A stretch of DNA of 64,000 nt. Origin: a virus. The DNA lies in the IMG/VR virus record IMGVR_UViG_3300045988_103931, positions 1-64,000 of that record. The stretch is one strand, 5' to 3'. Shown here one piece after another: positions 17,006 through 63,032 of this stretch. The notes under the pieces were generated by a model. That model did not search any database. It was not told the DNA's origin and saw only the letters and a program-made list of their open reading frames with translations. A program made the position numbers and the translations under genes. Every line of letters starts with the position of its first letter. Within the stretch, counting starts at the first letter, position 1.

Positions 17006-17079
17006 TGTGAACGATGATTTACAGATTGTTCACAAAATACTGTGGAATACATACCGCGGGAGAGGTATGATATAATCAC
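17006..17079 (+). promoter_or_regulatory. early promoter/operator cassette c1
   Basis: TTGTGAAC-N14-GTTCACAA inverted repeat around GATTTACA; ATACC-N9-GGTAT; then TATGATATAAT. Confidence 0.6.
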
Positions 17080-17121
17080 GATAAGGAAAACACAAACACA
17101 AATCCAAAGAAGGGGAAGAAA

Positions 17122-17358
17122 ATGTATATCGGTAATAATTACATGGTAAACACAAAACTTGCAAATGGAATCTATCACAACGAATACTTCATTGACGAAA
17201 AAAGCGCGATTGCATATGCAAACGAATGCTACAAACGCGGAGACATGGAGATTGAGCTACTGCGTCGTGGGAGATGTGGCTACTACAGAATGAAAAAAAT
17301 CGTCAGAAAGTTCGCTGGAAGTCCGTTATATGAAGTTGTATACGACGATTTCCGTTGA
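17122..17358 (+). CDS. hypothetical protein
   Basis: 78 aa. It is the first ORF after cassette c1 and has SD GAAGGGGAAG. Confidence 0.5.
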   Translation: MYIGNNYMVNTKLANGIYHNEYFIDEKSAIAYANECYKRGDMEIELLRRGRCGYYRMKKIVRKFAGSPLYEVVYDDFR

Positions 17359-17458
17359 ATTTGAGAATGACGCAGACGCAGAGTGACCGCCGAAAGGCGG
17401 GTAATGCGAGTACCGAAAACGGTAGCGGTCACAACTCCGCAAGAAAGGAACAAACAAA

Positions 17459-17725
17459 ATGAAATACGCAAGAAATATATACATACGCAATATATTTAGC
17501 AGTATGTACTCATTCGATTCACGGGATTCTGAATATCGCGAAATCGACCTCAAAGAAGCTACACGAAAGATGAATTCTCTCGAAAATATCTTAACGTGGT
17601 TCACAAAATATGAAACAGGAAGCGCAATAGTCTATTTACACCATAAAATTGAAAAAGAGAAAGACATTCAATATTGGAACACCATGGTTAAGGAAACAAT
17701 CGGAGAATATATTTTCTACAAATAA
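17459..17725 (+). CDS. hypothetical protein
   Basis: 88 aa, with a hairpin plus AGAAAGG SD upstream. Confidence 0.5.
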   Translation: MKYARNIYIRNIFSSMYSFDSRDSEYREIDLKEATRKMNSLENILTWFTKYETGSAIVYLHHKIEKEKDIQYWNTMVKETIGEYIFYK

Positions 17726-17778
17726 AGAATAAATTCACCGAACGAGAGCGGTTATTCTCCCGTAGAAAGGACTAAAAT

Positions 17779-18099
17779 ATGAAAACACGCATTATCGAAA
17801 ATATTTCAATAGCATTGTATCTTTCTTTTATAGTCTTGTGTGGAACGGCTGCATACTGGTGGGAGAACCTCACGAGCGCGGAAACATTAATAGGGTGGTG
17901 TATTTGCCTTGCCGTGCTTTTTGCCGCTGTGAGCGGTTGGAGAGCGTTTGTGAGACATGGTCTTGAAGTCATAGAATGGAGAGCAACACATAGAGCAATC
18001 CAGTATGACGCAAGAGGAAGTAGACAGGATGAAAACCACCTTGGTTACGTTTCGTCAGAATCAATACGAGAGATCAGCAAGAGAGGAAGAAATGAATAG
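17779..18099 (+). CDS. membrane protein (two TM helices)
   Basis: 106 aa, with a hairpin plus AGAAAGG SD. Hydrophobic helices: ISIALYLSFIVLCGTAAYWW and LIGWCICLAVLFAAVSGW. Confidence 0.5.
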   Translation: MKTRIIENISIALYLSFIVLCGTAAYWWENLTSAETLIGWCICLAVLFAAVSGWRAFVRHGLEVIEWRATHRAIQYDARGSRQDENHLGYVSSESIREISKRGRNE

Positions 18100-18457
18100 C
18101 TCAATATGGAAAGGAAAAGAAATAAGTGATTCACTTATTTTGAGAACAACGGAACGTTCCGCGCTAATTGCAATGCCACGTTATAGTGAGTATAGCGGAT
18201 ATACTTTTTGGCATCCTCTAAAATTAGTTCGGCGCGAATATGGCATTGTGTCTCTCAGATATACGGATGATTTTCAATTCCGTTTGCAGAAACGTGAGAA
18301 AACAAGAAAAGGGCAATGGGAACTTACGGACGAAGTTACACTAACGGCAGAAGAAATTGAGGATATTCTATCGGAAGAAGAACCACTGATATACACGCCG
18401 AAACCGTTAGAACCAGAACACGCAACAGTTGATGAAAGTTTGGTGGATGATGAGTAA
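18029..18457 (+). CDS. hypothetical protein
   Basis: ATG 18029 lies behind GAGGAAG. The ORF-track start at 18005 has no SD. Confidence 0.45.
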   Translation: MKTTLVTFRQNQYERSAREEEMNSSIWKGKEISDSLILRTTERSALIAMPRYSEYSGYTFWHPLKLVRREYGIVSLRYTDDFQFRLQKREKTRKGQWELTDEVTLTAEEIEDILSEEEPLIYTPKPLEPEHATVDESLVDDE

Positions 18458-19691: not shown

Positions 19692-19694
19692 ATA

Positions 19695-19766
19695 TGAACA
19701 ACGATTTACAAATTGTTTATAAAATAATGCAGAATTAAGTGCCGCTTGTGTGGTATAATATATACA
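19695..19766 (+). promoter_or_regulatory. early promoter/operator cassette c2
   Basis: TGAACAacGATTTACAaatTGTTTAtAAAATAATgCAGAAT...TGTGGTATAATATATACA. Confidence 0.6.
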
Positions 19767-19813
19767 GAACAAAAGAAAAGCCTACGGGCAAAGCGAGAAA
19801 GAGAGAAAATAAA

Positions 19814-20287: not shown

Positions 20288-20346
20288 ATAAAACAATCTA
20301 CTTGCAAAGAACTGCGCTAACGGTTTGACGGGCAGAAAGGTTGACG

Positions 20347-21207
20347 GTGTTTTATATAGGAGATTGGGATAAGCAGAAAATCATTTCCCACTACATCGAA
20401 AACAATGATGTAAAAAAAGTCTTGGTGATATACAGCAAGCAACGGAATGAATATGAAACGGGCATAGAAACCCGATATATAGAATTACATCTTGCTAAAG
20501 CACATGAGACGCACTACGAGTTATTACAGTACATAAACAGATACACGCTAATTGTTATGGATGATTTGTTAGTATCACAGCAAAGATACATGAACGAATA
20601 TAACTGTGTTGCTAACTTTGTCAATCAAACCCCGCACAGACTTGTATTTAACTATCTCCCGTTTATTGAGCAAAAAGACGATTTCATGATTCTGCTTGAC
20701 TTTTACAACAGAGTGAAATACAAGGGCGAAAGATTTGATTATGAGCTTTTCAAAGACTTCAAATACTTCATCAAGCCTGTGCATATTAAAGTCAATTTTC
20801 ATGAAGTGGAGGTAATGAATGAAGATGTAAGAAATTACAATCAGCAAAGGGATGAATTGTTCGCCGAAATCGGTCTTGCAAATCCGCAGATAATCCCTAA
20901 TAGATTATCCGCAATGTGTGGAGATGTAAAGTATAAAACCGCTCCATTCGATAAAATGATTGCGAGAAATCGGCGATATAAGAATTTAACCACATTCAAG
21001 GATTCTGCGGTTAATCCGATTCTGGAATTTCCCGTTAAAAGACAAGACTTTGTTGAGTGGATTTCAAGAACGAAACAGACGGAGATTGATGTATTAACAA
21101 GCCAGTTGAGCATGGATGAATGGTATAAACAGGATTATCTGAACTGGATAGAAAGGCTTGAAGAATTTTATGATAAGGCAAACATTTATCGGAATAAACG
21201 TAGTTGA
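20347..21207 (+). CDS. module-1 protein X1 (unknown; paralog of 22846..23565)
   Basis: GTG 20347 lies 6 nt after AGAAAGG. It shares IGDWDKQKI / IGEYDKTKI, HRLVFNYLPF / HRLIFNYFPI and DFMIL with X2. Confidence 0.6.
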   Translation: MFYIGDWDKQKIISHYIENNDVKKVLVIYSKQRNEYETGIETRYIELHLAKAHETHYELLQYINRYTLIVMDDLLVSQQRYMNEYNCVANFVNQTPHRLVFNYLPFIEQKDDFMILLDFYNRVKYKGERFDYELFKDFKYFIKPVHIKVNFHEVEVMNEDVRNYNQQRDELFAEIGLANPQIIPNRLSAMCGDVKYKTAPFDKMIARNRRYKNLTTFKDSAVNPILEFPVKRQDFVEWISRTKQTEIDVLTSQLSMDEWYKQDYLNWIERLEEFYDKANIYRNKRS

Positions 21208-22309
21208 AGCAACAAAGAAAAGAATCGAGTGGATTTTTGATAACTTTGAACACATAGTCGTAAGCATTAGTGGCGGGAAAGATAGCACGGTTCTTGCGTA
21301 CATGACATTGCAAGAAGCGCACAAGAGAAACCGAAAGATAGGCATTTTCTTCCTCGATGAAGAAGTGGTCTATCAAAGCACGGTAGATCAGGTGCGGTAC
21401 TTGATGGAACTTTATCCAGAAAACACGGTGAAGATGTGGTATCAATTGGAGTTTAATCTCACAAATGCCACAAGCCTTGATGAAACACAGTTTAAAGTAT
21501 GGGATAAAGACAAGCAAGATATTTGGATGAGACCGAAAGAACCGGACAGCATTACATATCCAACATGGGACTTGAGCAAAGAAACAATCCGCAACAAAAA
21601 GAAAGGTTTTGGGTTTTTCGACGCTATGGATAACTTTGTAGCCACATACACAAATACGGCATATCTAATCGGATTAAGAGCAGCCGAAAGTTTGAACAGG
21701 TGGAGAGCGGTTACAAAGTACGCAGGAATCCCAAACGTCTATTGGAGTACATACAGAAACAACGGCAATTATAACCTATATCCGCTGTACGATTGGAACT
21801 TTCAAGACATTTGGAAATATCTTTACGAAAACAAAATAAGATACTCCAAAATATACGATTATCAGTATAAAAAAGGACTTGGTATGAAAGACATGAGAGT
21901 GTCGAGTTTGATACACGAAAAGTCATTTCATTCACTTGTCGAACTTCCGGAGTTTGAGCCGGAAACATACGATAAGCTAATAATCAGAACACAGGGGGTG
22001 CAGGTCGGAAATATCTATGGCAAAGACGATTTAATGCTCAGATGTAGGAAATTGCCTAAAAATTTCAAAGATTGGATGGAATACAGAGATTTTCTGTTAT
22101 CGACTGTAAAGGAAGACGATATAAAAGCGATATTTGAAAAGCGTTTCTCGAAACAGCTTAACAACAACTACGTCGCGCGTCAGCAGTGCAAACAGCTAAT
22201 ACTGAATGACTATGAAAACAATCTTGGAATAACGAACGGCGAGGACAAACGAGAAAAAGAACTGAAATACTGGAAAGGAGTTTTATATGGTGAAAGTTAT
22301 ACAGAGTGA
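21170..22309 (+). CDS. module-1 PP-loop ATPase, PAPS-reductase family (IbrA-like)
   Basis: It has the PP-loop VSISGGKDS, plus RKIGIFFLDEEVVY, LRAAESLNR, YPLYDW, RVSSLIHEKSF and a C-terminal ARQQCKQLILNDYENN. It overlaps X1. The ORF-track start is 21158. Confidence 0.7.
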   Translation: MIRQTFIGINVVEATKKRIEWIFDNFEHIVVSISGGKDSTVLAYMTLQEAHKRNRKIGIFFLDEEVVYQSTVDQVRYLMELYPENTVKMWYQLEFNLTNATSLDETQFKVWDKDKQDIWMRPKEPDSITYPTWDLSKETIRNKKKGFGFFDAMDNFVATYTNTAYLIGLRAAESLNRWRAVTKYAGIPNVYWSTYRNNGNYNLYPLYDWNFQDIWKYLYENKIRYSKIYDYQYKKGLGMKDMRVSSLIHEKSFHSLVELPEFEPETYDKLIIRTQGVQVGNIYGKDDLMLRCRKLPKNFKDWMEYRDFLLSTVKEDDIKAIFEKRFSKQLNNNYVARQQCKQLILNDYENNLGITNGEDKREKELKYWKGVLYGESYTE

Positions 22310-22844
22310 AAAAGGAGAAATTAAACTACCATGTTTCGATGTGGTGTTGGTTGACATTGATAAGGTTGTGGCGAATGACTACAACCCCAACCATGTCAGC
22401 GTAAAAAATATGCAGTTACTTGAAGAAAGCATTATAAGCAACGGCTTTTGTTTCCCTGTGGTAACCATACATGATGAAAAGAAAGACGAGTACATTATTA
22501 TAGACGGCTTTCACAGATACACGATATTCAAGGACTATCTAAAGGCAAAGCAGCTTCCTGTTGTTGTACTCGACCACGATTTGAGCAAACGTATGATTGC
22601 AACGGTTCAGTTTAACAGAGCAAGAGGAGTTCATCATGTGGAGCTTATGGGGGATCTTGTGAAAGCGTTGGCGGGAGAGGGAATAACAGACGAACAAATA
22701 GCTGTAAGCCTTGGAATGGAAATGGAGGAAGTGTACAGGCTGAAGCAAATCACGGGCGTTGCAGAGCTGTTTAAAAATCAGTTATACAGTCCTGCATGGG
22801 AAATGAAAGACATGGACAAGAACGTGTACTATCAGGGAGATTGA
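22287..22844 (+). CDS. module-1 ParB-N-domain protein (IbrB-like)
   Basis: Motifs: ANDYNPNHV, NGFCFPVVT, IIIDGFHRYT and VQFNRARGVH. It overlaps the IbrA-like gene. Confidence 0.7.
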   Translation: MVKVIQSEKGEIKLPCFDVVLVDIDKVVANDYNPNHVSVKNMQLLEESIISNGFCFPVVTIHDEKKDEYIIIDGFHRYTIFKDYLKAKQLPVVVLDHDLSKRMIATVQFNRARGVHHVELMGDLVKALAGEGITDEQIAVSLGMEMEEVYRLKQITGVAELFKNQLYSPAWEMKDMDKNVYYQGD

Positions 22845-22845
22845 T

Positions 22846-23565
22846 ATGAAAAAAATATACATAGGAGAATACGACAAAACAAAAATTGTCAATGAATATA
22901 TCTCCGAAAACAAAATTGATAAGGTATATATTATCGGAGACGATATATCAATTGACTTTGAGAACAAGGAAAACATAAAATTTTCCGATACCATAATGTA
23001 CAAATATTTCTACAGGCTATTGCAGGAAATCAATAAGGATTCGTTAATCGTACTTAATGAGTGCTTAAAAAAGCAGAACAGATACGATTTAACATATAAC
23101 TGTATCAGACGGTATATGTTACAGACAGACCACCGCTTAATCTTCAACTATTTCCCCATCGTCAAAGAACAAGAAGATTTTATGATCTTGTACGATATGC
23201 TTCAAAACAATCCGTTCTTGAAAGAACCCTATAAATATATCACTGAATTTGAAAATGTTGAAGTTAGCAAGGTTGTATTTGATGTCAACAAAACCGACGT
23301 TGTTTTGCCAGATGAGTGTGAAGCAGAGTATGAGCGTGAAAAAGAAAACCTCATCGGCAAGGTGAATAAAGACCCCGATATAATTCCGAGAGGGTTGTTA
23401 AGATTCAGCGAAAAGAAGAAACCAAAGAACTATGACAGTTTGGCGAAAATTAAGCCAGTGATGAACGTGGCAGTAAGTCAGTTAAAGGTTGATACGTATT
23501 ATTACAACGAATTACTAAACTTTAGAAAGGAATTGACCGATGTCTTACAAAAAATACACGGATAA
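22846..23565 (+). CDS. module-2 protein X2 (unknown; paralog of X1)
   Basis: 239 aa. See X1 for the shared motifs. Confidence 0.6.
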   Translation: MKKIYIGEYDKTKIVNEYISENKIDKVYIIGDDISIDFENKENIKFSDTIMYKYFYRLLQEINKDSLIVLNECLKKQNRYDLTYNCIRRYMLQTDHRLIFNYFPIVKEQEDFMILYDMLQNNPFLKEPYKYITEFENVEVSKVVFDVNKTDVVLPDECEAEYEREKENLIGKVNKDPDIIPRGLLRFSEKKKPKNYDSLAKIKPVMNVAVSQLKVDTYYYNELLNFRKELTDVLQKIHG

Positions 23566-24655
23566 AACCGTGTTAGAAGCAACGAAAGAGAGAATCAGCT
23601 ACATTTTCGATGAGTTTGAAAACATCATTGTTTCTATCAGCGGGGGGAAAGACAGCGAAGTGTTGTGTTATCTTGCACTTCAAGAAGCAAGGAAAAGAGG
23701 CAGAAAGATAGGCATATTCTTTTTGGATGAAGAAGTTGTTTATAAATCCACCATAGAAATGGTGGAGTACCTCATGAGTATGTACCCCGAAAACACAAAC
23801 AGATTTTGGTTGCAAATTCCTTTTAATCTCACAAACTCAACAAGTTTCGCTGACGGGCAGGTGAATTGTTGGGAACAGGCAAAAAAACCTGTATGGATGC
23901 ACAAGAGAAGTGAGAAGAACATACTCAGAAAAACATGGTCGCATGAGACGCATATCGCAGACAAAAACAAAGGTTTTGGCTTCTACGATGTAATGTACAA
24001 CTTTGAATATTCATTTGAAAACACAGCTTTTCTTGTCGGATTAAGAGCGGACGAAAGTTTGAACCGATACAGAACAATGGTAAAGCGCAAAGGCTACAAG
24101 GACATTTACTGGAGTACAAAAAGAGCAGGAACAAATTATTCGTTTTATCCTCTTTATGACTGGGGATTCAATGATGTATGGAAGTTCATCGGAGAAAACA
24201 ATCTGAAATATCATAAGTTTTATGATTTTGCCTACAAAAAAGGAAAGCACATCAATGAGATCAGAGTGTCGAGCTTGACGCACGAAAAAAGTTTCAAGTC
24301 GATTCAAGACTTGCCCGAATTTGAGTTTGATACATACGAAAAACTATTGAAGCGTATAAAAGGCATTTCGTTTGCGCAAGAAACCGCAAAAGACAGGAAA
24401 ATGTTTAAGGTGCAGAAGCTCCCGCAGAACTATAAGTCGTGGAGAGAGTACAGAGATTTTCTACTTGCAACATACCCAGACGAAAGCAAGAAACCTATTT
24501 TTGAAAAACGATTTGCCAAGCATCTTGACAATGAATTTGTTGCAAGACAGCAGTGCAAACAGCTTGTTCTTAACGATTACGAAAATAACTTCCCGGTAAA
24601 AAACACAGAAGACCCGATTATGGAAAGAATCAATTATTGGAGGAAAGTGTTATGA
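23540..24655 (+). CDS. module-2 PP-loop ATPase, PAPS-reductase family (IbrA-like)
   Basis: Motifs: VSISGGKDS, RKIGIFFLDEEVVY, LRADESLNR, YPLYDW, RVSSLTHEKSF and ARQQCKQLVLNDYENN. It is collinear with the module-1 copy. Confidence 0.7.
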   Translation: MSYKKYTDKTVLEATKERISYIFDEFENIIVSISGGKDSEVLCYLALQEARKRGRKIGIFFLDEEVVYKSTIEMVEYLMSMYPENTNRFWLQIPFNLTNSTSFADGQVNCWEQAKKPVWMHKRSEKNILRKTWSHETHIADKNKGFGFYDVMYNFEYSFENTAFLVGLRADESLNRYRTMVKRKGYKDIYWSTKRAGTNYSFYPLYDWGFNDVWKFIGENNLKYHKFYDFAYKKGKHINEIRVSSLTHEKSFKSIQDLPEFEFDTYEKLLKRIKGISFAQETAKDRKMFKVQKLPQNYKSWREYRDFLLATYPDESKKPIFEKRFAKHLDNEFVARQQCKQLVLNDYENNFPVKNTEDPIMERINYWRKVL

Positions 24656-25185
24656 AGATAGATATTCCGTGCCTTAACATCAAACTTGTTGACAGAGATA
24701 TGTTACAGGCGAATAATTACAACCCGAACAATGTGCCAAAGGATAAGATGGAATTGCTCAAGCAGTCGATTATCGACAATGGTTTTTGCTTTCCTATTGT
24801 AACGATTTGGAGCGAGGAAGATGAGAAGTATATCATCATTGATGGATTCCATAGATATACAATGTGTATGCCGGAGTGGTTGGACATAAAACAAGTGCCT
24901 GTCGTTGTGTTGAAACACGATTTAAGTCAGCGAATGGCAGCAACGATTCAGTTCAACAAGGCAAGGGGAGTTCATGCCGTCGACGGTGACGCAGAAATTG
25001 TTAGAAGTCTAATCGAACAGGGATTGAGCGAGGAAGAAATAAGCAAGCACCTTGGTATCGACATGGAAACCGTACTGAGATATAAGCAACTCACAGGAAT
25101 TGTTGAACTGTTCAAGAACGTTGAATATAGCAAGAGTTGGGAAGTCGGAGAGTTCGACGGAGAGGATGAAAAGGAGGATAGATAA
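24652..25185 (+). CDS. module-2 ParB-N-domain protein (IbrB-like)
   Basis: ATG 24652 lies behind GGAGGAAAG. Motifs: ANNYNPNNV, NGFCFPIVT, IIIDGFHRYT and IQFNKARGVH. Confidence 0.7.
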   Translation: MKIDIPCLNIKLVDRDMLQANNYNPNNVPKDKMELLKQSIIDNGFCFPIVTIWSEEDEKYIIIDGFHRYTMCMPEWLDIKQVPVVVLKHDLSQRMAATIQFNKARGVHAVDGDAEIVRSLIEQGLSEEEISKHLGIDMETVLRYKQLTGIVELFKNVEYSKSWEVGEFDGEDEKEDR

Positions 25186-25817
25186 TGAGCAAATGGGAAT
25201 ACGGCGGCGTATATAAGAATTACGATATGGATGGAGAAATCAATATCGGCGGCGGTATCTTGAAAGTGCATAATATTTTCGATCCGCTCCCTGATTTCAT
25301 GAAAAAAGCGGATTGCATTTTCTGTGACCCGCCTTGCTCACAAGGAAACATAAACAGCTTTTACACAAAAGCCGATAGAACAGATTATCAGACGAGCTAT
25401 GACCCGTTTGAAAATCGTTTCTTTGAGTGTATAGATGAGATAAAGCCTAACACTTTGTTTGTTGAAGTGTTCGCACAAAATGCAGCGAATTTCGCGGACA
25501 GATGCAATGATAGATATGCAAATATCCATGTCTACGAAACTACTTATTATCACAAAAAAGATTGCAAGTGTTTTATCATAGCTTGTTCAAACGTCATCGA
25601 CATACATAATCTGCCGTTTGAGGACATGGACGAAGAGGACGTTATAGCGTGGATAGGAAAGAATATTAATTATGAGTGTATTGGTGATTTATGTATGGGC
25701 AGAGGACTTGTAGGATGGCACTCATATATCAACGGAAAGCCTTTTGTCGGAACGGAAATAAACAAAAAACGGCTTGCTGTGCTTATTGATAAGATAACAA
25801 AACATCCGAAAAATTGA
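25185..25817 (+). CDS. divergent DNA-methyltransferase-like protein (motif IV before motif I)
   Basis: 210 aa. CIFCDPPCS resembles motif IV ((D/N/S)PP(Y/F/W)) but carries Cys. C-terminal GDLCMGRGLVG...GKPFVGTEIN resembles the AdoMet motif I of beta-class N4/N6 MTases. Confidence 0.45.
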   Translation: MSKWEYGGVYKNYDMDGEINIGGGILKVHNIFDPLPDFMKKADCIFCDPPCSQGNINSFYTKADRTDYQTSYDPFENRFFECIDEIKPNTLFVEVFAQNAANFADRCNDRYANIHVYETTYYHKKDCKCFIIACSNVIDIHNLPFEDMDEEDVIAWIGKNINYECIGDLCMGRGLVGWHSYINGKPFVGTEINKKRLAVLIDKITKHPKN

Positions 25818-25820
25818 CTA

Positions 25821-25848
25821 TACCGCCAAAATGGTATATTATGAACTA
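25821..25848 (+). promoter_or_regulatory. half-cassette promoter upstream of XRE gene
   Basis: ATACCgccaaaatGGTATATTATGAAC. The ATACC-N8-GGTAT palindrome overlaps a -10-like TATATT and is followed by an AAGAGTGTT / AACACTCTT hairpin. Confidence 0.4.
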
Positions 25849-25907: not shown

Positions 25908-26138
25908 ATGACGTTAAAAGAAAAAAGGATTGAATCAGGATATACACAAAGTGAACTATCAGAAAAAGCAGGAATGAGCCTTAGAACATTACAGCACTTT
26001 GAAAGAAATTATAGACTGCCAGACAAAGCGCAACTTGAAACGCTCTGCAAACTTGCAATCGTGCTTAATTGTCCGATTGACGATTTAATTGTGAACGACG
26101 ATCTGAGAGAGCTATACCGAAAAGCGAAAACACTATAA
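25908..26138 (+). CDS. XRE-family HTH transcriptional regulator
   Basis: 76 aa, with GYTQSELSEKAGMSLRTLQHFERN. Confidence 0.75.
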   Translation: MTLKEKRIESGYTQSELSEKAGMSLRTLQHFERNYRLPDKAQLETLCKLAIVLNCPIDDLIVNDDLRELYRKAKTL

Positions 26139-26178: not shown

Positions 26179-26213
26179 TGTGAGGTGAAATTTCAGAAAA
26201 TTCTCTCTAATTA

Positions 26214-26285
26214 TGAACAGTGATTTACATTTTGTTTACAAAATAATACAGAATTAATACCGCTAAAGTGGTAAAATATAATCAC
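26214..26285 (+). promoter_or_regulatory. early promoter/operator cassette c3
   Basis: TGAACAgtGATTTACAtttTGTTTACAAAATAATACAGAATtaATACC-N8-GGTAAAATATAATCAC. Confidence 0.6.
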
Positions 26286-26332
26286 AAGGAAGAACAAAAC
26301 ACAAACACAAAACAGGAAGAGAGAAAGAAAAA

Positions 26333-26620
26333 ATGAAACGCATTAATTTTGATAAGAACATTAAGGCAAGCACGATTGAGAAAGCATCAAAGAAGTTTGC
26401 TGAATATCTTGCAAAAAATGGTTACGAATGGGCGGCAGAAGAAATTATTGAGAGCGTTGAGAACGGGTATTTCTATTGCTCGAACGCGACAATAGCTAAT
26501 CTTGTCAAAGGCGGCAGACCCGTTCACCCCGAAACAAGCGACTGGACATACTACTGGGGAATTGAAAACGTAGATGGTAATGCCTGGTACGCATGGTTTA
26601 TCGAAAGAGTTGAAGATTAA
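26333..26620 (+). CDS. hypothetical protein
   Basis: 95 aa. It is the first ORF after c3. Confidence 0.5.
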   Translation: MKRINFDKNIKASTIEKASKKFAEYLAKNGYEWAAEEIIESVENGYFYCSNATIANLVKGGRPVHPETSDWTYYWGIENVDGNAWYAWFIERVED

Positions 26621-26724
26621 TAATTGTAGAGTGGCGGCGGCAACGCCGTTAATGCAGTCTAACGCAGATTCAACGCATTAAAACAGTGTTAGAGCGGTCA
26701 CAACTCCGCAGAAAGGTAAAAATC

Positions 26725-27201: not shown

Positions 27202-27253
27202 ATTAAATAAACCAAGCCGGAGTGGTTATTCTCCGCCAGAAAGGAATAAAACA

Positions 27254-27619: not shown

Positions 27620-27671
27620 ATAAGTGTAAAATTAAACCTGTGCTATCGGGTTACGGGCAGAAAGGTATAAA

Positions 27672-28064
27672 GTGAAAAGAGTAAGTAAAATCATGATTGC
27701 GGCGGCATTAATTCTCTCAATGATGGGATGTACGCAAGCTGACATAGTATCAACAAACGTATCAAGAAATGCGGATAACTTCAATGTGTGCCGCAGAATA
27801 ACGGTTATCAATAGCCGCACAGATACGGTTATCTACGAGCTTGAAGGAGTGTTCTCACTGAGTAATGGCTATAATAACGAGCTTGAAGTTATTTGTCAGA
27901 CTGGCGAGAACGAATACAAAAAGCACTTCATTTATCTTACCGATACAGTGTTGTATGTCGTGGAAGATATGAGCGGTGCTGACGTATCTCCATATCATTA
28001 CGAAGTCACATTCTATCCGCAGATGGTTGGTGGTGTTGACGTAGATGTAAAGTGGGAGAATTAA
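27672..28064 (+). CDS. putative lipoprotein
   Basis: GTG start behind AGAAAGG. There is a signal peptide with a lipobox (LILSMMGC). Confidence 0.55.
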   Translation: MKRVSKIMIAAALILSMMGCTQADIVSTNVSRNADNFNVCRRITVINSRTDTVIYELEGVFSLSNGYNNELEVICQTGENEYKKHFIYLTDTVLYVVEDMSGADVSPYHYEVTFYPQMVGGVDVDVKWEN

Positions 28065-28805
28065 ATGAAATACATATACAAACCGAAAGGCAAGGCAAAA
28101 GAGTACGGAGATTATGCAATTAACATTTACACCGGATGTCCTCACAGGTGCTATTATTGCTTTGCTCCAAGTGTTTTGCGTAAAGACAAAGAAAAGTTTC
28201 ACACTTGCGTTGAACCGCGAGAAAACATTGTAGAGGGCGTAAAAAGACAGGTGGAGCGCGAGAACATTACAGGAAAGTTAATACACCTATGTTTCATTTG
28301 TGATCCGTACCCAAAAGGATATGACAGCACACCAACAAGAGAGATAATCAAAATTCTTAAAGGTGCGGGAAATCATGTGCAGATTCTCACAAAGAATGGA
28401 TTGGACGCTGCACGTGACTTTGATTTGCTTGACGGTGATGATTGGTTCGGAGTGACTTATGCAGGATATGACGAATATGTGCTTGACAGAACATATATCC
28501 CGATTGAAGAACCGGGCGCGGGAAGTCCGCATGATAGGCTTCTTGCTCTTGCGGTAGCACACAATAGAGGAATCAAAACATGGGTATCCGCCGAACCAAT
28601 TATTAACGCTGCCGATGTACTTCAAGTCATGGAATTTGCAGATTATGTTGACCGTTGGAAAGTCGGAAAGATGAATTATCACGAATCTAATATTGACTGG
28701 GCGGCATTCGGCAGACTTGCAGAAGCAACGCTTAATTCGTTACACAAAGAATACTACATAAAAGAAAGTTTAAGAAAGGAAATGGAAAATGGCAACAAAG
28801 ACTGA
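28065..28805 (+). CDS. radical SAM enzyme (COG1533 / spore-photoproduct-lyase-like)
   Basis: GCPHRCYYC (CxxxCxxC) lies near the N-terminus, with a downstream CDPYP motif. Confidence 0.65.
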   Translation: MKYIYKPKGKAKEYGDYAINIYTGCPHRCYYCFAPSVLRKDKEKFHTCVEPRENIVEGVKRQVERENITGKLIHLCFICDPYPKGYDSTPTREIIKILKGAGNHVQILTKNGLDAARDFDLLDGDDWFGVTYAGYDEYVLDRTYIPIEEPGAGSPHDRLLALAVAHNRGIKTWVSAEPIINAADVLQVMEFADYVDRWKVGKMNYHESNIDWAAFGRLAEATLNSLHKEYYIKESLRKEMENGNKD

Positions 28806-35402: not shown

Positions 35403-35475
35403 TGTGAATTCCTATTTACATTTTGTTTACAAAATATCGTAGAATTAGTGCCGCAAAAGAGGTATAATATATACA
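35403..35475 (+). promoter_or_regulatory. early promoter/operator cassette c4
   Basis: TGTGAATtcctATTTACAtttTGTTTACAAAATA...AGAAT...GGTATAATATATACA. Confidence 0.55.
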
Positions 35476-39636: not shown

Positions 39637-39960
39637 TTACTCTTCCATCCGCAAATACAAGCGCATTATCTCTTTGTATAACCTCTCTCGCTCTTCTTTT
39701 GGAATGCCTTCATTCAGAAATACACTCTTTGCTCGGCTCAACAGCTCAAATCCCTCATCCTGCGTTTCTACGCCAAAGTAAGAAAGACCGACTTTGTAAA
39801 ACTCCGCAAACCGTTTCAGGTCGGATAAATGTGGTGAGCGCCGACCGCACTCATAATTGCTGATTGTTGCGCGACTTATTCCGAGCTTTTCGGACAATTC
39901 TTGCTGAGTTAATTTTCTCCCCTTTCTCAAAGTTTTTAATTTTTCTCCAATGAAACACAT
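39637..39960 (-). CDS. XRE/CI-like repressor
   Basis: LTQQELSEKLGISRATISNYECGRRSP. It is divergent from the + strand early genes. Confidence 0.75.
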   Translation of the reverse strand: MCFIGEKLKTLRKGRKLTQQELSEKLGISRATISNYECGRRSPHLSDLKRFAEFYKVGLSYFGVETQDEGFELLSRAKSVFLNEGIPKEERERLYKEIMRLYLRMEE

Positions 39961-39986
39961 TGATTACATCACCTCCCATATGATAC

Positions 39987-40140: not shown

Positions 40141-40338
40141 TTGAAAAGCGTAAGAAAACACACCATTCATGATAGACTGTCGATTGATATTGCGTTAGCT
40201 GAAAACGCAAAAACCACAGAAGATAGGAAAGCATTAGCTTATCAAGCAATCGGTGCGGCGGAAATTGCCGTTGAATTTGACTTAATTACATACATGGAAT
40301 TTGAGGGTTACATAAATAGCATATTTTCGATTTTATGA
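40141..40338 (+). CDS. hypothetical protein (first gene opposite the repressor)
   Basis: TTG start behind GAGGTG; 65 aa. Confidence 0.4.
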   Translation: MKSVRKHTIHDRLSIDIALAENAKTTEDRKALAYQAIGAAEIAVEFDLITYMEFEGYINSIFSIL

Positions 40339-40390
40339 GGGCGATTGCCCTTTGCTTTAACTCCGCCTTGCGTCGTTTTGTTAGCAAATA

Positions 40391-40465
40391 TGAACATTGA
40401 TTTACAAAATGTTCACACAAAAACTGTAGAAACAATACCGCTGTTGTGGTATAATATAGGTACAG
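40391..40465 (+). promoter_or_regulatory. early promoter/operator cassette c5
   Basis: TGAACATT-gatttacaa-AATGTTCA; ATACC-N8-GGTAT; TGTGGTATAAT. Confidence 0.6.
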
Positions 40466-40933: not shown

Positions 40934-41160
40934 TGCTTATAAGAGACAAGGACAGTGCAGAGGGATATATTCACCTCTGCGCCGATAGTCACAAATACAC
41001 GAAAAAGGCACTTGCGGAAAGGTTGCAAATTAAGTTGCACGATGTTACAGCTTATACGTTGATAGATGGCAAAAATGGCGTTGATATGGTGCGCATTAAG
41101 TATTGCCCGTATTGCGGAGTAGAGATCGAGAAAGACGAATACGAAAAGGGGAACTTATAA
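40933..41160 (+). CDS. zinc-ribbon hypothetical protein
   Basis: 75 aa, with YCPYCG. Confidence 0.4.
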   Translation: MLIRDKDSAEGYIHLCADSHKYTKKALAERLQIKLHDVTAYTLIDGKNGVDMVRIKYCPYCGVEIEKDEYEKGNL

Positions 41161-42062
41161 TGAGATATTACGAAATTGACGAAACGGCTGCAAGACGTGG
41201 GCGCGAATTGTGGAGCTTTTCCGAATACAAGAACGGCAGCAAAACATCGGAATACAGAGCGCAAGTTGATGAGGTATACAAAATCGTTGATGAACTTCCT
41301 GACGGTCTGAAAGAAAAAGGGGCGGCAATGGCTGAAAGATACGCCCGCCGCCTTGCTGAATGGTATAACAAGCAATTCCGCATTGAAGCGATGTGTCCAT
41401 CGGTTATGATTAGCGGCGGTAGCAACTTCCCCGTGAGAAAGAAAGAAAAACAGAACGCCGCGCAAGATAATCATTATCAGTTATACAATAAAATTCAGCA
41501 GATTCCAGAGAGAATCAAAAGACTTGCGAGAGGTTCAAATATCATTAAATCGGGAGATGCTGACGCATTGGAACAGCTTCAAAAGAAAGTCGAGAAAGCA
41601 GAAGAATTACAGGCAGAAATGAAAGCCGTAAACGCCTATTACAGAAAGAATAAGACGCTTAAAGGGTATAAGGACTATACCGACGAAAAGGCGGCAAAAC
41701 TCGATGAAGCGATCAAGGAGAGCATGTGGGGAGTTCCATTCCCTCCGTATGAGTTGACAAACAACAATGCGAAAATCAGAAACACAAAGGCAAGAATCGC
41801 GGAGCTTGAACGGCTGAAAGAATCCGCAAAAGATACAGAAGAACAGACTGACGAATATAGCACGGATTTGTTTAGAGTGGTGGAGAATACGGAGATCATG
41901 CGCTTGCAGTTGTTCTTTGGCGAAAAGCCAGACGCAGATACAAGAGCCGTGCTAAAGAAGAACGGATTTCGATTCGCGCCGTCACAGAACAATGCTTGGC
42001 AACGTCAGTTGAACGCGAATGGCAAGTACGCATTGAAGCGAGTAATTGAAGAACTCTCTTAA
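41160..42062 (+). CDS. DUF3560-like protein
   Basis: ATG 41160 overlaps the previous stop (TAATG). The segment IKSGDADALEQLQKKVEKAEELQAEMKAVNAYYRKNKTLKGY is typical of DUF3560 proteins from mobile elements. Confidence 0.5.
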   Translation: MRYYEIDETAARRGRELWSFSEYKNGSKTSEYRAQVDEVYKIVDELPDGLKEKGAAMAERYARRLAEWYNKQFRIEAMCPSVMISGGSNFPVRKKEKQNAAQDNHYQLYNKIQQIPERIKRLARGSNIIKSGDADALEQLQKKVEKAEELQAEMKAVNAYYRKNKTLKGYKDYTDEKAAKLDEAIKESMWGVPFPPYELTNNNAKIRNTKARIAELERLKESAKDTEEQTDEYSTDLFRVVENTEIMRLQLFFGEKPDADTRAVLKKNGFRFAPSQNNAWQRQLNANGKYALKRVIEELS

Positions 42063-42081
42063 AACAAAATGTATGTAATTA

Positions 42082-42154
42082 TGAACACGGTTTTACAATC
42101 TGTTTACAAAATAATACAGAAACGATACCTCAAATGCGGTATAATATAGTCACA
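42082..42154 (+). promoter_or_regulatory. early promoter/operator cassette c6
   Basis: TGAACAcgGtTTTACAatcTGTTTACAAAATAATACAGAAacgATACC-N9-GGTATAATATAgTCAC. Confidence 0.6.
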
Positions 42155-42193: not shown

Positions 42194-42385
42194 ATGAAAG
42201 AATTTAGAATCAAGGGAACATGGTACACCGTAAAAGCAAATTGCATTAGACAGGCATTGAAGAAACTGGTGGACGAAGATGGAGACTTTACCTACACTCC
42301 ACACTGGTACACAAGAAGCAATCGGAAATCGTGGGCTGAATTTGAAACAAGCTACGGTTATCGCGGAATCGTCGAAGAGGTATAA
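42194..42385 (+). CDS. hypothetical protein
   Basis: ATG 42194 lies behind GAGAGAAAG. Confidence 0.45.
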   Translation: MKEFRIKGTWYTVKANCIRQALKKLVDEDGDFTYTPHWYTRSNRKSWAEFETSYGYRGIVEEV

Positions 42386-42465
42386 AGCAGAGTGGCGGCG
42401 GCAACGCCGTTAATGCACACAACGAAAGTTGTACGGTCACAAGTCCGAAATTGGAGGGTAAAACA

Positions 42466-47781: not shown

Positions 47782-47856
47782 TGTGAACAGTGATTTACAT
47801 TTTGTTTACAAAATAATACAGAATCAATACCTCTCACGCGGTATAATATAGATACA
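47782..47856 (+). promoter_or_regulatory. early promoter/operator cassette c7
   Basis: TGTGAACAgtGATTTACAtttTGTTTACAAAATAATACAGAATcaATACC-N9-GGTATAATATA. Confidence 0.6.
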
Positions 47857-48180: not shown

Positions 48181-48220
48181 CCGAGCGGGAGCGGTTATTC
48201 TCCCGTAGAAAGGTTTTAAA

Positions 48221-50126: not shown

Positions 50127-50271
50127 TGGTATAATTTCATTACAAGGTTGTAGTTAGAAGTTGCGGTCTGGCTACGACTAAGATGAATAACTGCAACCTT
50201 AGCCTTTGGGGTATATCGAGCCGCAACCTTGATATATTCCGAAGGTTTTTATTTTGAGAGGGTGAATAAGC
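50127..50271 (+). promoter_or_regulatory. promoter plus attenuator-like leader of the replication operon
   Basis: TGgTATAAT lies at 50127-50135. Four mutually pairing segments are AAGGTTG (50144), GCAACCTT (50193), GCAACCTT (50223) and AAGGTT (50242). The last pair is followed by TTTTTATTTT. Confidence 0.4.
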
Positions 50272-53258: not shown

Positions 53259-54002
53259 ATGATTAAAGTAGAAAACATTGAAGTCTTTGGTTGGGAAGCT
53301 GCTATTCGTGGTATGAGGAATCCAATGAACTCATGGGAGAAAAGTGATAGCAGATGGTACTCGATAGGAACACCGGGGACTAATCCAGCAGCCGACAACG
53401 ATAGATGTTTAAGAGAAAAATATTGTATCGGTGAAAATGATTTGAAGCTCATGAAGAACCTCCGAAAAGCCGGAACAGACCATAGGAAGTACCTTCGCAT
53501 GATTAATGTAACTATGGATATAACAGCACCGCTGTACTGGTGGAAAGAGTACGATACATACAAAATCGGAACAGTTGCGAATTCATGCTCAACTATTCAT
53601 AAGATAGCGGATAAAGAATTTACGTCGGATGATTTTAGTCATGAGCATTTACTAAATATGACTAATAATGACGCAGGAGATGCTATTTTTCTTAATGACG
53701 CACCTAACATCAGAGTAGATGCTGACGATCTTATGGGGTTGATAATCAACGTCCTTAACTACTATCGAAGAAGATACCTCAAAACCAAAGATAAGCGTTA
53801 TTGGTGGCAGCTTATCCAGCTTCTTCCTGCATCCTATAATCAGCGTCGAACGGTTCAGCTCAATTATGAAGTTCTTTTGAATATGTACCATGCACGAAAG
53901 AATCATAAACTTGATGAATGGGTTGAGTTTTGCAAAGTCATAGAAGTACTGCCATATTTTAAAATCATTTGTTTGAACAATGAGGATATTGAGAATGTAT
54001 GA
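53259..54002 (+). CDS. ThyX-like (flavin-dependent thymidylate synthase fold) protein with degenerate signature motif
   Basis: It aligns by eye to the ThyX core (HRKYLRMINVTMDITAPLYWWKEY, ARKNHKLDEWVEF). The RHRxxSxxxxSxRY motif is replaced by TYKIGTVANSCSTIH. Confidence 0.5.
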   Translation: MIKVENIEVFGWEAAIRGMRNPMNSWEKSDSRWYSIGTPGTNPAADNDRCLREKYCIGENDLKLMKNLRKAGTDHRKYLRMINVTMDITAPLYWWKEYDTYKIGTVANSCSTIHKIADKEFTSDDFSHEHLLNMTNNDAGDAIFLNDAPNIRVDADDLMGLIINVLNYYRRRYLKTKDKRYWWQLIQLLPASYNQRRTVQLNYEVLLNMYHARKNHKLDEWVEFCKVIEVLPYFKIICLNNEDIENV

Positions 54003-54498
54003 CGAAAGTCTTGTTACAGATAATTTAAACCTCGCACGATATGTTGCAAGAAAGTATCTCAACACTGGAATGGAATACGATGATTTAGAATCAATTGCTT
54101 TCATAGGACTTATAAAAGCGGCTAAAAGTTTTGATGAAAGCAAAGGCTATACATTTTCTACATATTCTGTACGTTGTATCGAAAACGAGATAAGATACTG
54201 TCTGAGGAAGAAAAGCATACGCGCCGAATCATTAGAAGAACCGATACAAGACAATCAGATTCTCGCCGACACCGTTAAAGATGAAACTGATACTTTGGAT
54301 GAATTTGTAATAAGAGAAACGTTGAAGTGTGCAATAAATGAATTAAATGATAGAGAAAGATTTATCGTTAATATGCTTTACTTCAAAAATCCACCGTTGA
54401 CGCAACAGGAAGTTGCTCAAAAATTAAACACAAATCAATCTCAAGTGAGTAAAACGCTCAAACGCGCGTTAAATAAGATTAGGGAATATGTGACGTAA
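53995..54498 (+). CDS. sigma-70-family sigma factor (group 3/sporulation-like)
   Basis: Region 2: DDLESIAFIGLIKAAKSFDESKGYTFSTYSVRCIENEI. Region 4: LTQQEVAQKLNTNQSQVSKTLKRALNKI. An alternative start is at 53980. Confidence 0.75.
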   Translation: MYDESLVTDNLNLARYVARKYLNTGMEYDDLESIAFIGLIKAAKSFDESKGYTFSTYSVRCIENEIRYCLRKKSIRAESLEEPIQDNQILADTVKDETDTLDEFVIRETLKCAINELNDRERFIVNMLYFKNPPLTQQEVAQKLNTNQSQVSKTLKRALNKIREYVT

Positions 54499-59061: not shown

Positions 59062-59080
59062 TAACAAAGGAGGGGAGGGC

Positions 59081-59608: not shown

Positions 59609-59615
59609 TTAAGGT

Positions 59616-60842: not shown

Positions 60843-60844
60843 TT

Positions 60845-60985
60845 ATGTGCAACCATATATGGAAAAAAGCATTCGAGAACTATGTGTGCGTTCGGTGCGG
60901 ACTTACCCGTTTGCCAGACGGACGCATATTTTTTGATAGGGGATTACCGAATTACAAAGCAAGTAAAAAAAGGAGAAAGAAATGA
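60845..60985 (+). CDS. small zinc-ribbon protein (46 aa)
   Basis: MCNHIWKKAFENYVCVRCG.... It makes an ATGA overlap with the next gene. Confidence 0.35.
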   Translation: MCNHIWKKAFENYVCVRCGLTRLPDGRIFFDRGLPNYKASKKRRKK

Positions 60986-61251
60986 ACGAACAAGATTTTT
61001 ACAAGATGGTAAAGAATGCTGTTGTTGAGTATGCTAACAAGCACCTTGACAAAACAGACAAAGCGCAAATTACGCCTGATGATGTGTTTATCGTTTGGAT
61101 GTGTAAAACATTACAAAACAGCAAGGCTCTTGCGTCCACTACATTGTTTGATGGTATGTACTACGAAGTGACATACAACGGGGATAAACATGAATACTAT
61201 TTTGACGCATATAAGAAGTGGGATAATTTTGCGGTTAAAATCGGTGAATGA
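60982..61251 (+). CDS. hypothetical protein
   Basis: 89 aa. Confidence 0.45.
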   Translation: MNEQDFYKMVKNAVVEYANKHLDKTDKAQITPDDVFIVWMCKTLQNSKALASTTLFDGMYYEVTYNGDKHEYYFDAYKKWDNFAVKIGE

Positions 61252-61272
61252 AATCGGTAGGGCGGTGAGAAA

Positions 61273-62751
61273 ATGACAAGAAACGAGATGGAGCTATATC
61301 CGAATTTCACAGGTGAGCTTGAAGCCATTCGCGAAACCGGAATAACAAAAGAGATTCTGCAAAAGATTATCCAAAAGCATAGACCGAACTCACTTTACAA
61401 CCGCCGTCTGTATAACAGATACAAGGCGATCTATGGCGGTGTGCCGATATTCGATAGGCAACCGCGCTATGAAGAAGAAAACCCGATCAATAATAGAATA
61501 AACAATGACTTTTTCAGTGAGATAGTAGATTTCAAAACAGGATACTTTGCAGGAGAGCCTATTTCATACAGCTACAGTGAAACGGATGAATCGGAAGAAT
61601 CCACAGGCGGTGTACAAGGTGTGGATAAAGCCGCAGAAGCATTGACCGACTTCACGACACGGAACAATATGTTCGGCATTGATATGGAAATAACAAAGAA
61701 TGCAAGTATCTATGGATACTCTGGCAGACTGTTCTATATCGACAAAGAGGGCATGGAACGGGTAATGCCTGTACCCGGTTATGAAACTATTATTCTCTCT
61801 GATACAAAGATAGCAGAGCCGGAATACGCTGTCAGGTATTATGAGGTCTCTGACATAAACGATACAAAGCAATGGATAGTAGAGTTTTACGATGATAAGA
61901 ACGTAACCACCTACAAGGGCGATTTAGGCTCTCTGGCGGAGATGGAAACACGTCCGCATATGTTTGACTATTGCCCGTTGCAAGGCATAGCAAATAACGC
62001 TGAACGCATGGGAGATGCTGAAAAGGTTCTTGAACTGATAGACGGCTATGACCGCGCTGTGTCTGACTGCTCCAACGAGATTGAAGCATTTGTTCATGCC
62101 TTGATGGTTGTCGGCGTGAATGTTGATGATGAAGTCATAACTAAAGCACAGAAAAGCGGAGTTCTTATTATTCCACAAGTTGGCTCTAATGTAGTGAATG
62201 ACCCTGTAAAGTGGGTGACGAAGAACATAGACGATGCTTTTTCCGAACACCATTTGCAACGGTTAGAGGATAACATATACAGATTCTCAAAAACGCCAAA
62301 CCTTAACAAAGACCTGTTCAGTAGTTCAAGCGGAAAAGCATTGAAATTCCGGTTGCACCAGTTGGAAACGAAAAGCGCAATGTTTGAGAGTTGCATGATG
62401 GATGCTGCTATTCATATGTGGCGTTTGCTTTCGTCCAGTTGGGCGAAAAAAGGAATCAAATTCGACCCGCTTCAAGTGGTTATGGATTTCAAGAGAAATT
62501 TCCCCACAGAGGTTTTGGAGAATGCGCAAGCTGCACAGGCTCTTATTGCCGCAGGACTGTCTAAGAAACAGGCATGGGCGATTGCTATTCCAGAAGTTGA
62601 CGATCCAGACTATGCGGAAGAAATGGCAAACGCTGAAAAGGAAGATAACATGGCGTTGTATGAAGCCGCTCAACAGGGATTTAATGATTCGGGCGATGAA
62701 CAAGATGAGCCAGACGAAAAAGACGAGCAAAAGAAGCAGGAGGGAATATGA
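61273..62751 (+). CDS. portal protein (SPP1 Gp6-like)
   Basis: 492 aa with an acidic C-terminus, positioned after TerL. Confidence 0.75.
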   Translation: MTRNEMELYPNFTGELEAIRETGITKEILQKIIQKHRPNSLYNRRLYNRYKAIYGGVPIFDRQPRYEEENPINNRINNDFFSEIVDFKTGYFAGEPISYSYSETDESEESTGGVQGVDKAAEALTDFTTRNNMFGIDMEITKNASIYGYSGRLFYIDKEGMERVMPVPGYETIILSDTKIAEPEYAVRYYEVSDINDTKQWIVEFYDDKNVTTYKGDLGSLAEMETRPHMFDYCPLQGIANNAERMGDAEKVLELIDGYDRAVSDCSNEIEAFVHALMVVGVNVDDEVITKAQKSGVLIIPQVGSNVVNDPVKWVTKNIDDAFSEHHLQRLEDNIYRFSKTPNLNKDLFSSSSGKALKFRLHQLETKSAMFESCMMDAAIHMWRLLSSSWAKKGIKFDPLQVVMDFKRNFPTEVLENAQAAQALIAAGLSKKQAWAIAIPEVDDPDYAEEMANAEKEDNMALYEAAQQGFNDSGDEQDEPDEKDEQKKQEGI

Positions 62752-62969
62752 TTAAACGCACAATTAAAGAAACTATCCGTGAGTATGACAAAGACGGCAA
62801 GGTGATTCGTGAAACAATTACAGAAACGTCGGAGTATGATAACACTGCTTACTGCCTGACTTGTCCTCATGGTCAGCCTGTCACTATAACCAATACGCCT
62901 ATACGCGATACGTCAGATTGGATAAAAGTGACTTGTACAAATTCAGCAACGACAAATTATGAACACTGA
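62748..62969 (+). CDS. hypothetical protein
   Basis: 73 aa with an ATGA overlap with the portal gene. Its last codons lie inside cassette c8. Confidence 0.45.
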   Translation: MIKRTIKETIREYDKDGKVIRETITETSEYDNTAYCLTCPHGQPVTITNTPIRDTSDWIKVTCTNSATTNYEH

Positions 62970-63032
62970 TTTACAAAGTGTTCATAAAATAACATAGAAT
63001 CCATACCGCGAAAAAGGTATAATATAATCACA
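62960..63032 (+). promoter_or_regulatory. promoter/operator cassette c8 (inside the head module)
   Basis: ATGAACACT-gatttacaa-AGTGTTCAT; ATACC-N9-GGTATAATATAATCAC. Confidence 0.55.

Follow-up and report, generated by a model that had tools for sequence, protein, structure and literature searches.

Why does a temperate phage carry one ~75-bp sequence eight times over, always in the same orientation? The question is raised by IMG/VR virus record IMGVR_UViG_3300045988_103931, whose positions 1 to 64,000, a stretch of 64,000 nucleotides referred to here as the window, were originally predicted from the letters alone to be partitioned into transcription units by eight copies of a composite promoter/operator cassette (c1 to c8). 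Comparison of the window with related metagenomic phages indicates that each cassette is quite probably a promoter of the sigma-A type with an operator in its spacer. We also favor, with somewhat less assurance, a fuller model in which a 76-aa XRE-family protein encoded in the window (XRE-76) would regulate its own promoter and act as the common repressor of the cassettes.

All eight copies were recovered where the original prediction had placed them, every one on the plus strand, with boundaries accurate to ~2 nt. Aligned over the predicted intervals (~85 columns), they share 40 invariant columns, and the mean column identity is 71% including the flanks. A degenerate 67-nt pattern matches six of the eight copies, with none expected from 100 shuffles, and an nhmmer profile built from the copies returns exactly eight full-length matches in the window (E values of 1e-20 to 5e-18), the next-best match being a partial copy at 25818-25842 (E = 0.48). 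The cassette core, counted from (A/G)TGAAC to TATAATA, is 66 nt long, or 67 nt in c2 and c5. When 44 distinct copies were compared, i.e., the eight of the window and ~36 from related metagenomic phages, 36 proved to be exactly 66 nt over the same span.

The window belongs to a temperate, siphovirus-like phage of ~75 kb, uncultured, from gut Clostridia, and its structural genes encode an SPP1-type portal, a large terminase, a tape-measure protein and tail proteins. Phages 97-100% identical to it lie on metagenome contigs of ~74.8-75.4 kb from several samples, and portal homologues delimit a large family of 72-80-kb metagenomic phages, part of them in metagenome-assembled genomes (MAGs) labelled Clostridia. 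Among cultured phages, megablast finds no match to the window and portal identity does not exceed 37%; a search of IMG/VR with portal 8-mers found no relative, and a search of GTDB genomes with the full cassette gave no match. The relatives that carry cassettes fall into three groups: L248, with 84% portal identity and a copy at the position equivalent to c8; L257, L259, L260 and L261, retrieved through homologues of the small XRE gene; and three IMG/VR genomes (73-78 kb) together with several more distant contigs. In the comparison with L248, cassette identity is ~92% against 79-81% for the coding flanks, and the DNA upstream of the cassette cannot be aligned; the cassette is thus conserved far above its flanks, and every substitution in it affects a column in which the paralogous copies differ as well.

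In anatomy the cassette reads as a promoter. Its -10 hexamer is TATAAT in six of the eight window copies (TATGAT in c1, TAAAAT in c3), and an extended -10 element (TGn, -15 to -13) is present in three of the eight and in 29 of the 36 family copies of 66 nt. The original prediction held that no TTGACA-like hexamer precedes the -10 and that a conserved ACAGAAT takes its place, and from this that the promoters are -35-independent. For the window copies the first part stands: the hexamers located 17 bp from the -10, (C/T)AGAAT, TGGAAT or TAGAAA, match TTGACA at only two to four of six positions. The second part finds no support, relatives carrying -35-like hexamers exactly where ACAGAAT lies. At this place, 17 bp from TATAAT, the 36 copies read TAGAAT or CAGAAT, TTGAAT (four copies), TTGATT (three) or TTGTTT (one), and one promoter of the relatives that lacks the upstream module has TTGACA there. 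ACAGAAT is thus best read as a decayed -35 rather than an element of another kind. From the repeat, its geometry, its anatomy and its conservation, all of which can be read directly, we infer promoter activity. The cassette would then be a promoter for the housekeeping sigma factor (sigma-A/sigma-70 type), built from four modules at fixed spacing within 66 nt. The first, TGAACA-N4-TTTACA-N5-TTyAmA followed by an A-tract (~-70 to -38), is probably an UP-like or factor-binding enhancer; the second would be the weak -35, (C/T)AGAAT, decayed from TTGAAT; the third, a 17-bp spacer nearly filled by the dyad ATACCnC-N4-GnGGTAT, whose right arm would enter the -10; and the fourth, the TATAAT -10, with TGn in most family copies, and a conserved purine-rich leader after it.

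The window also has promoter-like sites outside the cassettes, two of them of canonical form (40064-40091 and 25814-25842), besides further candidates near 50127 and 55812. The site at 50127 (TGgTATAAT), previously taken for a half-cassette, is merely a generic extended -10. It opens the plus-strand segment 50127-50250, in which the extended -10 TGGTATAAT precedes ~110 nt free of ORFs (open reading frames), after which comes a strong terminator hairpin of 20 bp (50201-50247); by its layout the segment is a candidate small RNA gene. In L244, a more distant portal relative, plain repeated promoters of the form ATTGAC(A/T)-N17-TATAAT occur with the same GTGGTATAAT. Directly 3' of one of them, at 14221-14295 of L244, lies a match to the int-alpA RNA family (37.2 bits, over the gathering score); a near-threshold match to that family, at 32.2 bits under the gathering score, lies at 8369-8440 (+) of the window.

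Could the cassettes instead serve the sigma factor that the phage itself encodes? The window does encode a sigma-70-family protein, a truncated, SigF/G/E/K-like polypeptide of 167 aa (53995-54498, plus strand), presumably akin to the sporulation-like sigma factors borne by Bacillus phages, and three portal relatives that lack the portal-adjacent cassette also show no sigma gene in the equivalent region. The elements themselves argue otherwise: a textbook TATAAT forms the -10, preceded by TGn in the majority of family copies, the -35 seems to derive from TTGAAT, and the cassette is unlike the consensus promoters of SigF/G/E/K. Moreover, the sigma gene lies inside the unit headed by c7, so its product could not start the cascade. 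TATAAT/TGn and the TTGAAT-like hexamers point to the host primary sigma, and the dependence on an alternative sigma that had been proposed finds no support; cassettes dedicated to the phage sigma strike us as most improbable.

How do these promoters lie with respect to the genes? The cores and their -10 elements occupy 17007-17072 (c1, 66 nt, GTGAAC...TATGATA; -10 at 17066-17071), 19694-19760 (c2, 67 nt; 19754-19759), 26213-26278 (c3; TAAAAT at 26272-26277), 35404-35469 (c4; 35463-35468), 40390-40456 (c5, 67 nt; 40450-40455), 42081-42146 (c6; 42140-42145), 47783-47848 (c7; 47842-47847) and 62959-63024 (c8; 63018-63023), all on the plus strand. Each cassette except c8 is followed after ~40-55 nt by an ATG with a purine-rich leader and a ribosome-binding site before it; the first gene after c8 (MuF-like, start 63249) is ~220 nt downstream. 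Compared with one another, the first ORFs after the cassettes are not paralogous. The original prediction had each copy just after a stop codon, often preceded by a terminator and followed by such a leader and the first ORF of an operon. The leader and ORF hold; terminator-like hairpins precede only c1 (16964-16989), c3 and, weakly, c5, and c2, c4, c6, c7 and c8 directly adjoin the upstream stop codon or overlap it. With so few upstream terminators, most cassettes are internal promoters in a long co-directional array rather than heads of insulated units.

The units themselves are diverse. That of c1 comprises ORF 17122-17358, a twister ribozyme and an SNF2 helicase; c2 begins directly at the helicase stop codon and heads a PAPS-reductase/ParB-like unit; c3 is followed by ORF 26333-26620, a twister ribozyme and a radical-SAM gene; the c4 unit converges on the lysogeny module. 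The c6 unit contains ORF 42194-42385, a twister ribozyme, XRE-69 and ERF/YqaJ recombination genes, and that of c7 the ArdC-like, SSB, DnaC-like, sigma, terminase and portal genes. Finally c8, which overlaps the end of ORF 62748-62969, precedes a conserved leader of ~220 nt, beyond which the head, tail and lysis genes begin and wrap around to 1-16250 of the window. The last assignment follows from locus L002, which runs 8.7 kb past the window end through head genes and holds no additional cassette, so that c8 heads the head, tail and lysis block to 16.2 kb. The c8 leader (63030-63248, plus strand) is ~98% identical to that of L248, folds at -64.6 kcal/mol (z = -2.2) and has no match in Rfam; it may be a structured regulatory leader of the late operon.

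What controls the promoters? Two operators per cassette had been proposed, and the downstream one, an ATACC..GGTAT dyad with a variable centre, is confirmed in the window copies. In full the dyad reads ATACCnC-N4-GnGGTAT; it spans 16-18 bp, fills the spacer of 17 bp and extends into the first bases of the -10. Four of its seven arm pairs are symmetric in at least 30 of the 32 dyad-bearing copies, one arm position is complementary in only one of the 32, and the four central bases vary freely. Symmetric arms, one non-complementary position and a variable centre form the pattern of a protein operator and not of a hairpin. Together with the overlap with the core promoter, they give the form of operators of the XRE/Cro-CI type, and on sequence grounds we read the dyad as the signature of a dimeric protein operator at the classic repressing position. 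The alternative that the dyad acts as an RNA hairpin in read-through transcripts, as a processing or stability signal, draws on several features: five of the eight cassettes lack an upstream terminator and are probably transcribed through, the A-to-G changes of the left arm and a G/T position would be G-U wobbles in RNA, and the segment folds better than shuffled sequences (z of -2.2 to -4.3). The stems are nevertheless weak (-4.3 to -8.8 kcal/mol) and no U-tract follows them; no compensatory double changes occur among the 32 copies, so that the dyad resembles neither an intrinsic terminator nor a structured RNA; and the dyad holds a constant position relative to the -35 and -10 and recurs in the spacer of the canonical XRE-76 promoter. 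We give the RNA hairpin very little credence. The general proposal of promoter modules with operator-like dyads is supported, and that of one regulator over at least eight units is plausible: a dimeric helix-turn-helix repressor bound there would block RNA polymerase at all eight promoters together.

A clue to the repressor comes from the only dyad in the window that lies outside the cassettes. A half-cassette had been noted near this place, and it is both real and informative: the dyad at 25820-25837 lies in the spacer of an otherwise canonical promoter (25814-25842, plus strand; TTGACT, spacer ATACCGCCAAAATGGTA, TATTAT, a 17-bp spacing) that has no upstream module and stands 66 nt upstream of the XRE-76 gene (25908-26138, plus strand). 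The gene encodes 76 aa with an HTH_3 domain, RstR-like, and is followed by a terminator-like hairpin. Because its own canonical promoter bears the cassette dyad in its spacer, XRE-76 is the most likely repressor, and the position of the dyad implies negative autoregulation. The arrangement is kept in seven relatives. These are all five retrieved through XRE-76 homologues (L257-L261) and, from the three IMG/VR genomes, L346 and L451, in which the protein is only 68% identical and the promoter reads cTTGAAT-ATGCCGCGAATGCGGTAT-AATATA; in the third (L475), the stretch inspected upstream of XRE-76 shows no dyad, and a site with TTGACT and the dyad lies ~300 nt further upstream (L475_6773). Among 5.8 billion proteins, XRE-76 homologues form just 11 clusters, all confined to this narrow clade. 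In the more distant contigs the upstream module and the 66-nt geometry are retained with unrelated spacers, and XRE-76 was not found in their retrieved parts. In L322, the dyad sits in a canonical promoter without the upstream module and no XRE ORF lies downstream.

Several points weigh against XRE-76 and against the promoter model as a whole. The gene closes lytic unit c2 and is read from the lytic strand, and hence its product may be a feedback regulator of the lytic phase rather than a lysogeny repressor. Its co-occurrence with the dyad was sampled partly through its own homologues and is to that extent biased, and the contigs without the dyad were inspected in part only. The half-site stays constant while the identity of XRE-76 falls from 100% to 68%, leaving no co-variation to be tested, and a distinct spacer palindrome, GAATATTC, occupies a cassette in genomes that also bear XRE-76 (L431_944, L464_2242). 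Finally, the T of TGn is missing from five of the eight copies in the window, whose -35 is also poor, and these might need an activator. With these points counted, the co-occurrence itself is an observation, and we lean towards XRE-76 as the binder, acting in lysogeny or in lytic feedback.

The CI-like repressor that the original prediction listed among possible binders is a less convincing candidate. This 107-aa XRE protein (39637-39960, minus strand) is encoded next to a serine recombinase (38073-39617, minus strand) and has operators of its own: the switch region (39950-40091) contains three ATGAAACA(C/T)AT sites, at 39950, 40003 (reverse complement) and 40047, which match neither cassette dyad, and two divergent promoters, one leftward (40015-39987) and one rightward (TTGAAC-16-TATAAT, 40064-40091). 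A role for this repressor as cassette regulator is not supported, its operators being different and the small XRE at 25908 being the better candidate; repressor and switch region would instead form a separate layer of control. The first gene of the rightward promoter, orf65 (40141-40338, plus strand), has no match in PHROGs, Pfam or NCBIfam, and a 72% identical homologue occupies the same place in L431, L450 and L493. Speculatively, orf65 could be an anti-repressor or activator, and the rightward switch promoter would lead through it into c5.

Does the upstream half of the cassette hold a second operator? The TGAACA..TGTTCA dyad claimed there is indeed perfect in c1, c5 and c8. Among the 36 copies, inverted-repeat symmetry is limited to the TGAA/TTCA core (21 of 36), and thus the proposed upstream operator, unlike the conserved, operator-like downstream one, is not conserved as a dyad. 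The module can equally be read as phased direct repeats or as an UP-like element: TGAACA, TTTACA and TTyAmA are phased at 10-11 bp from ~-70 to -44, with an A-tract following. In the window clade TTTACA mostly appears two times, consistent with a direct repeat, and the clade whose XRE-76 is 68% identical has TTCAAA. By hand count, c3 matches 12 of the 14 specified positions of the E. coli UP-element consensus, NNAAAWWTWTTTTNNNAAANNN, between -59 and -38. The invariant C and G positions, together with TGAACA lying beyond -60, suggest that a sequence-specific factor is involved as well.

A module of this kind invites a different explanation of the whole cassette, one already among the options of the original prediction, namely that these are activator-dependent promoters with a weak -35, silent unless a phage or host factor on TGAACA/TTTACA/TTyAmA (-70 to -44) recruits RNA polymerase, the dyad being a secondary control. 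A product of the rightward switch transcript, e.g., orf65, would be the phage candidate, and in the lysogen CI-like repression of the rightward promoter alone would then silence all eight units. Much would fit: the poor -35 and the TGn complete in only three of eight window copies; the phasing of the upstream hexamers; the fact that the module never stands alone in the window and is the most widely distributed part of the cassette, its distance from the -10 being the same even where a contig has hardly any protein in common with the window; and the position of the only strong canonical rightward promoter just upstream of c5. Yet relatives with a good -35 retain the same upstream module, which is hence no simple substitute for a -35; a contact of the polymerase alpha subunit, free of any activator, could explain much of it, given the UP-element match of c3; and no activator gene was identified, orf65 showing no DNA-binding signature in profile searches. 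We therefore regard activator dependence as possible but rather improbable, and retain the sigma-A-type promoter with a spacer operator as the preferred reading.

Motifs resembling the upstream module also occur in host genomes. In genomes and metagenomes a relaxed version gives mostly chance matches rich in A+T. The 22-nt motif TTTACA-N3-TGTTCA(C/T)AAAATA recurs in genomes of gut Clostridia (the Acutalibacteraceae MAGs L029, L046, L049, L054, L071 and L082, and L154, L016, L064 and others), where it precedes a conserved gene for a 168-aa ECF-type sigma and a gene for a lysine-rich membrane protein. These host sites lie at a different distance from the -10 and have no preceding TGAACA. The host motif may be a regulatory site related to the upstream module of the cassette, and a host factor for the module is conceivable. 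The phage sigma, considered as a relative of the 168-aa host protein, is unrelated to it. Likewise set aside was a reading of TTTACA-N5-TTTACA as a Bacillus PhoP box, its position relative to the -10 being different.

If selection on promoter function keeps the cassettes alike, do they also shape how the genome recombines? Comparison of the window with L254, L256, L257 and L259-L261 shows variant homology blocks that begin or end at c1+45, c2+60, c3+52 to +73, c4-58 and c4+47, and the breakpoints cluster at the cassette ends and the twister end (17111/17737, 19814, 26324-26345, 26728 and 35405 of the window). Because homology blocks start and stop at them, the cassettes are also mosaic junctions. 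Whole modules of cassette, first ORF and in part twister sit at differing places from genome to genome, the c6 module of the window standing at the c1 position in L257 and its c2 module at the c3 position in L260. These same breakpoints and exchanges could mean that the repeats persist mainly as recombination linkers that swap a promoter together with its first gene (and ribozyme), which would be compatible with promoter function. The conservation, however, is specific to columns, the linkers within the cassette are free and the promoter geometry is fixed, all of which imply selection on function beyond homology length; besides, 66-80 nt at ~75-85% identity makes a poor substrate for homologous recombination. 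Persistence mainly as linkers is very unlikely in our judgment.

Three twister self-cleaving ribozymes (Type-P5, RF02684) lie in the window, each directly after the first ORF of its cassette and on the plus strand: 17377-17440 after c1 (52.1 bits, E = 6e-8), 26625-26709 after c3 (37.8 bits, at the gathering score) and 42386-42448 after c6 (49.9 bits, E = 2e-7). The order of cassette, small ORF or ORFs and twister is repeated in relatives (L257 at 2884-2946 and 11020-11083, L260 at 432-486, L261 at 655-712). One may go further and picture cassette, variable small first gene and twister as a mobile expression module, exchanged between positions and between phages of this large family from gut Clostridia. 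In it the ribozyme would sever the message of the first gene from the remainder of the operon, and the conserved upstream module, which Oscillospirales genomes likewise show ahead of host genes, would be a binding site for a host factor that the phages have copied. We consider this extension doubtful, on the unlikely side.

A second intergenic repeat, GGTTATTCTCC(C/G)nnAGAAAGG, occurs at 17750-17770, 27224-27244 and 48193-48213 on the plus strand (three copies, none expected) as a hairpin that extends into the ribosome-binding site of the following gene; variants of a looser form, in which the hairpin is accompanied by CAGAAAGG, lie at 20288-20346 and 27620-27692. At 20341-25185 and 27672-28805 the window further encodes paired PAPS-reductase/DUF3440 and ParB_N-like genes, a radical-SAM gene and a Vut_1 transporter, and relatives (L245, L247) have QueC, a TAGT-family (PF20691) gene and MazG. 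This gene set, in the phage and its relatives, hints at hypermodified DNA, perhaps of the 7-deazaguanine type. The relatives additionally have tRNA clusters and homing endonucleases of the HNH or GIY-YIG type amid the head genes.

Is such a system without parallel? The original prediction considered a long dispersed regulatory repeat unusual for a temperate phage, which it is not, given SPBRE/MrpR of SPβ (PMC10516654) and the stoperators of Cluster A (PMC9283540). In SPβ, a Bacillus subtilis prophage, the SPBRE element at ~ten promoters is bound by the master repressor MrpR/YopR and maintains lysogeny; the MrpR motif is 15 bp and MrpR itself, of ~325 aa, has a tyrosine-recombinase fold (PMC10516654). 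We regard SPβ as the closest functional analogue, a likeness drawn from the distribution and control of the element and not from its sequence. In both, the element recurs in many promoter regions of a temperate phage (here eight, each before the first ORF of a unit) and coexists with a separate decision system, a single repressor holding all off in SPβ. Unlike the SPβ element, the cassette is a whole promoter of 66 nt with a dyad of 16-18 bp, and its candidate binder is an XRE protein of 76 aa. A 319-aa ORF between c5 and c6 (41103-42062) was tried as an MrpR-like master repressor and shows no PDB match to MrpR; no integrase-type Pfam family was found among the called genes covering 12.8-64 kb of the window.

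In the Cluster A mycobacteriophages, L5 gp71 and its relatives included, numerous stoperators and one immunity repressor bring about genome-wide silencing; the sites are short, asymmetric, bound by monomers and mostly within transcribed regions, where they stop elongation (PMC9283540, PMC6550527). The cassettes share with stoperators the genome-wide copies in one orientation relative to transcription, an orientation that here is owed to the promoter itself. They differ in having a symmetric dyad that lies in promoter spacers, and so do not qualify as stoperators.

Other phages offer broader parallels. Coliphage P1 has dispersed C1 operators through which one repressor controls many scattered operons, and Streptomyces phage phiC31 has near-identical early promoters, not sigma-70-like in appearance, that carry conserved inverted repeats and are associated with repressor sites. 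Control of scattered operons by one repressor would be common to all of them, and the phiC31 promoters, like the cassettes, are near-identical copies; hosts, sequences and repressor families differ, and the cassettes, unlike the phiC31 early promoters, look sigma-70-like. Phage promoters that lack a -35 and depend on an activator include the T4 middle promoters (MotA/AsiA), phi29 A3 with p4 and the TP901-1 late promoter with Alt. Like these, the cassettes combine a good -10 with a poor -35 and have a conserved element upstream at a fixed distance. Each of those systems has an identified activator and, T4 apart, a single target promoter; in the cassettes the -35 seems to have decayed and not to have been replaced, that of relatives is normal, and no activator was identified. 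By analogy, the principle of promoter-operator repeats is already known from SPβ and L5, and the cassette system adds a further example.

For the family as a whole, the cassettes provide a sequence-level handle on the control of large temperate phages of ~72-80 kb from gut Clostridia, entirely uncultured, in which one small repressor and one promoter design of 66 nt appear to govern almost the whole lytic strand. The family swaps its modules, i.e., the upstream element, the strength of the -35 and the spacer operator, at a fixed geometry, a property that might serve the design of synthetic promoters in Clostridia. Furthermore, the regular placement of a twister ribozyme after the first gene of cassette units gives a concrete setting in which the role of bacterial twisters can be tested.

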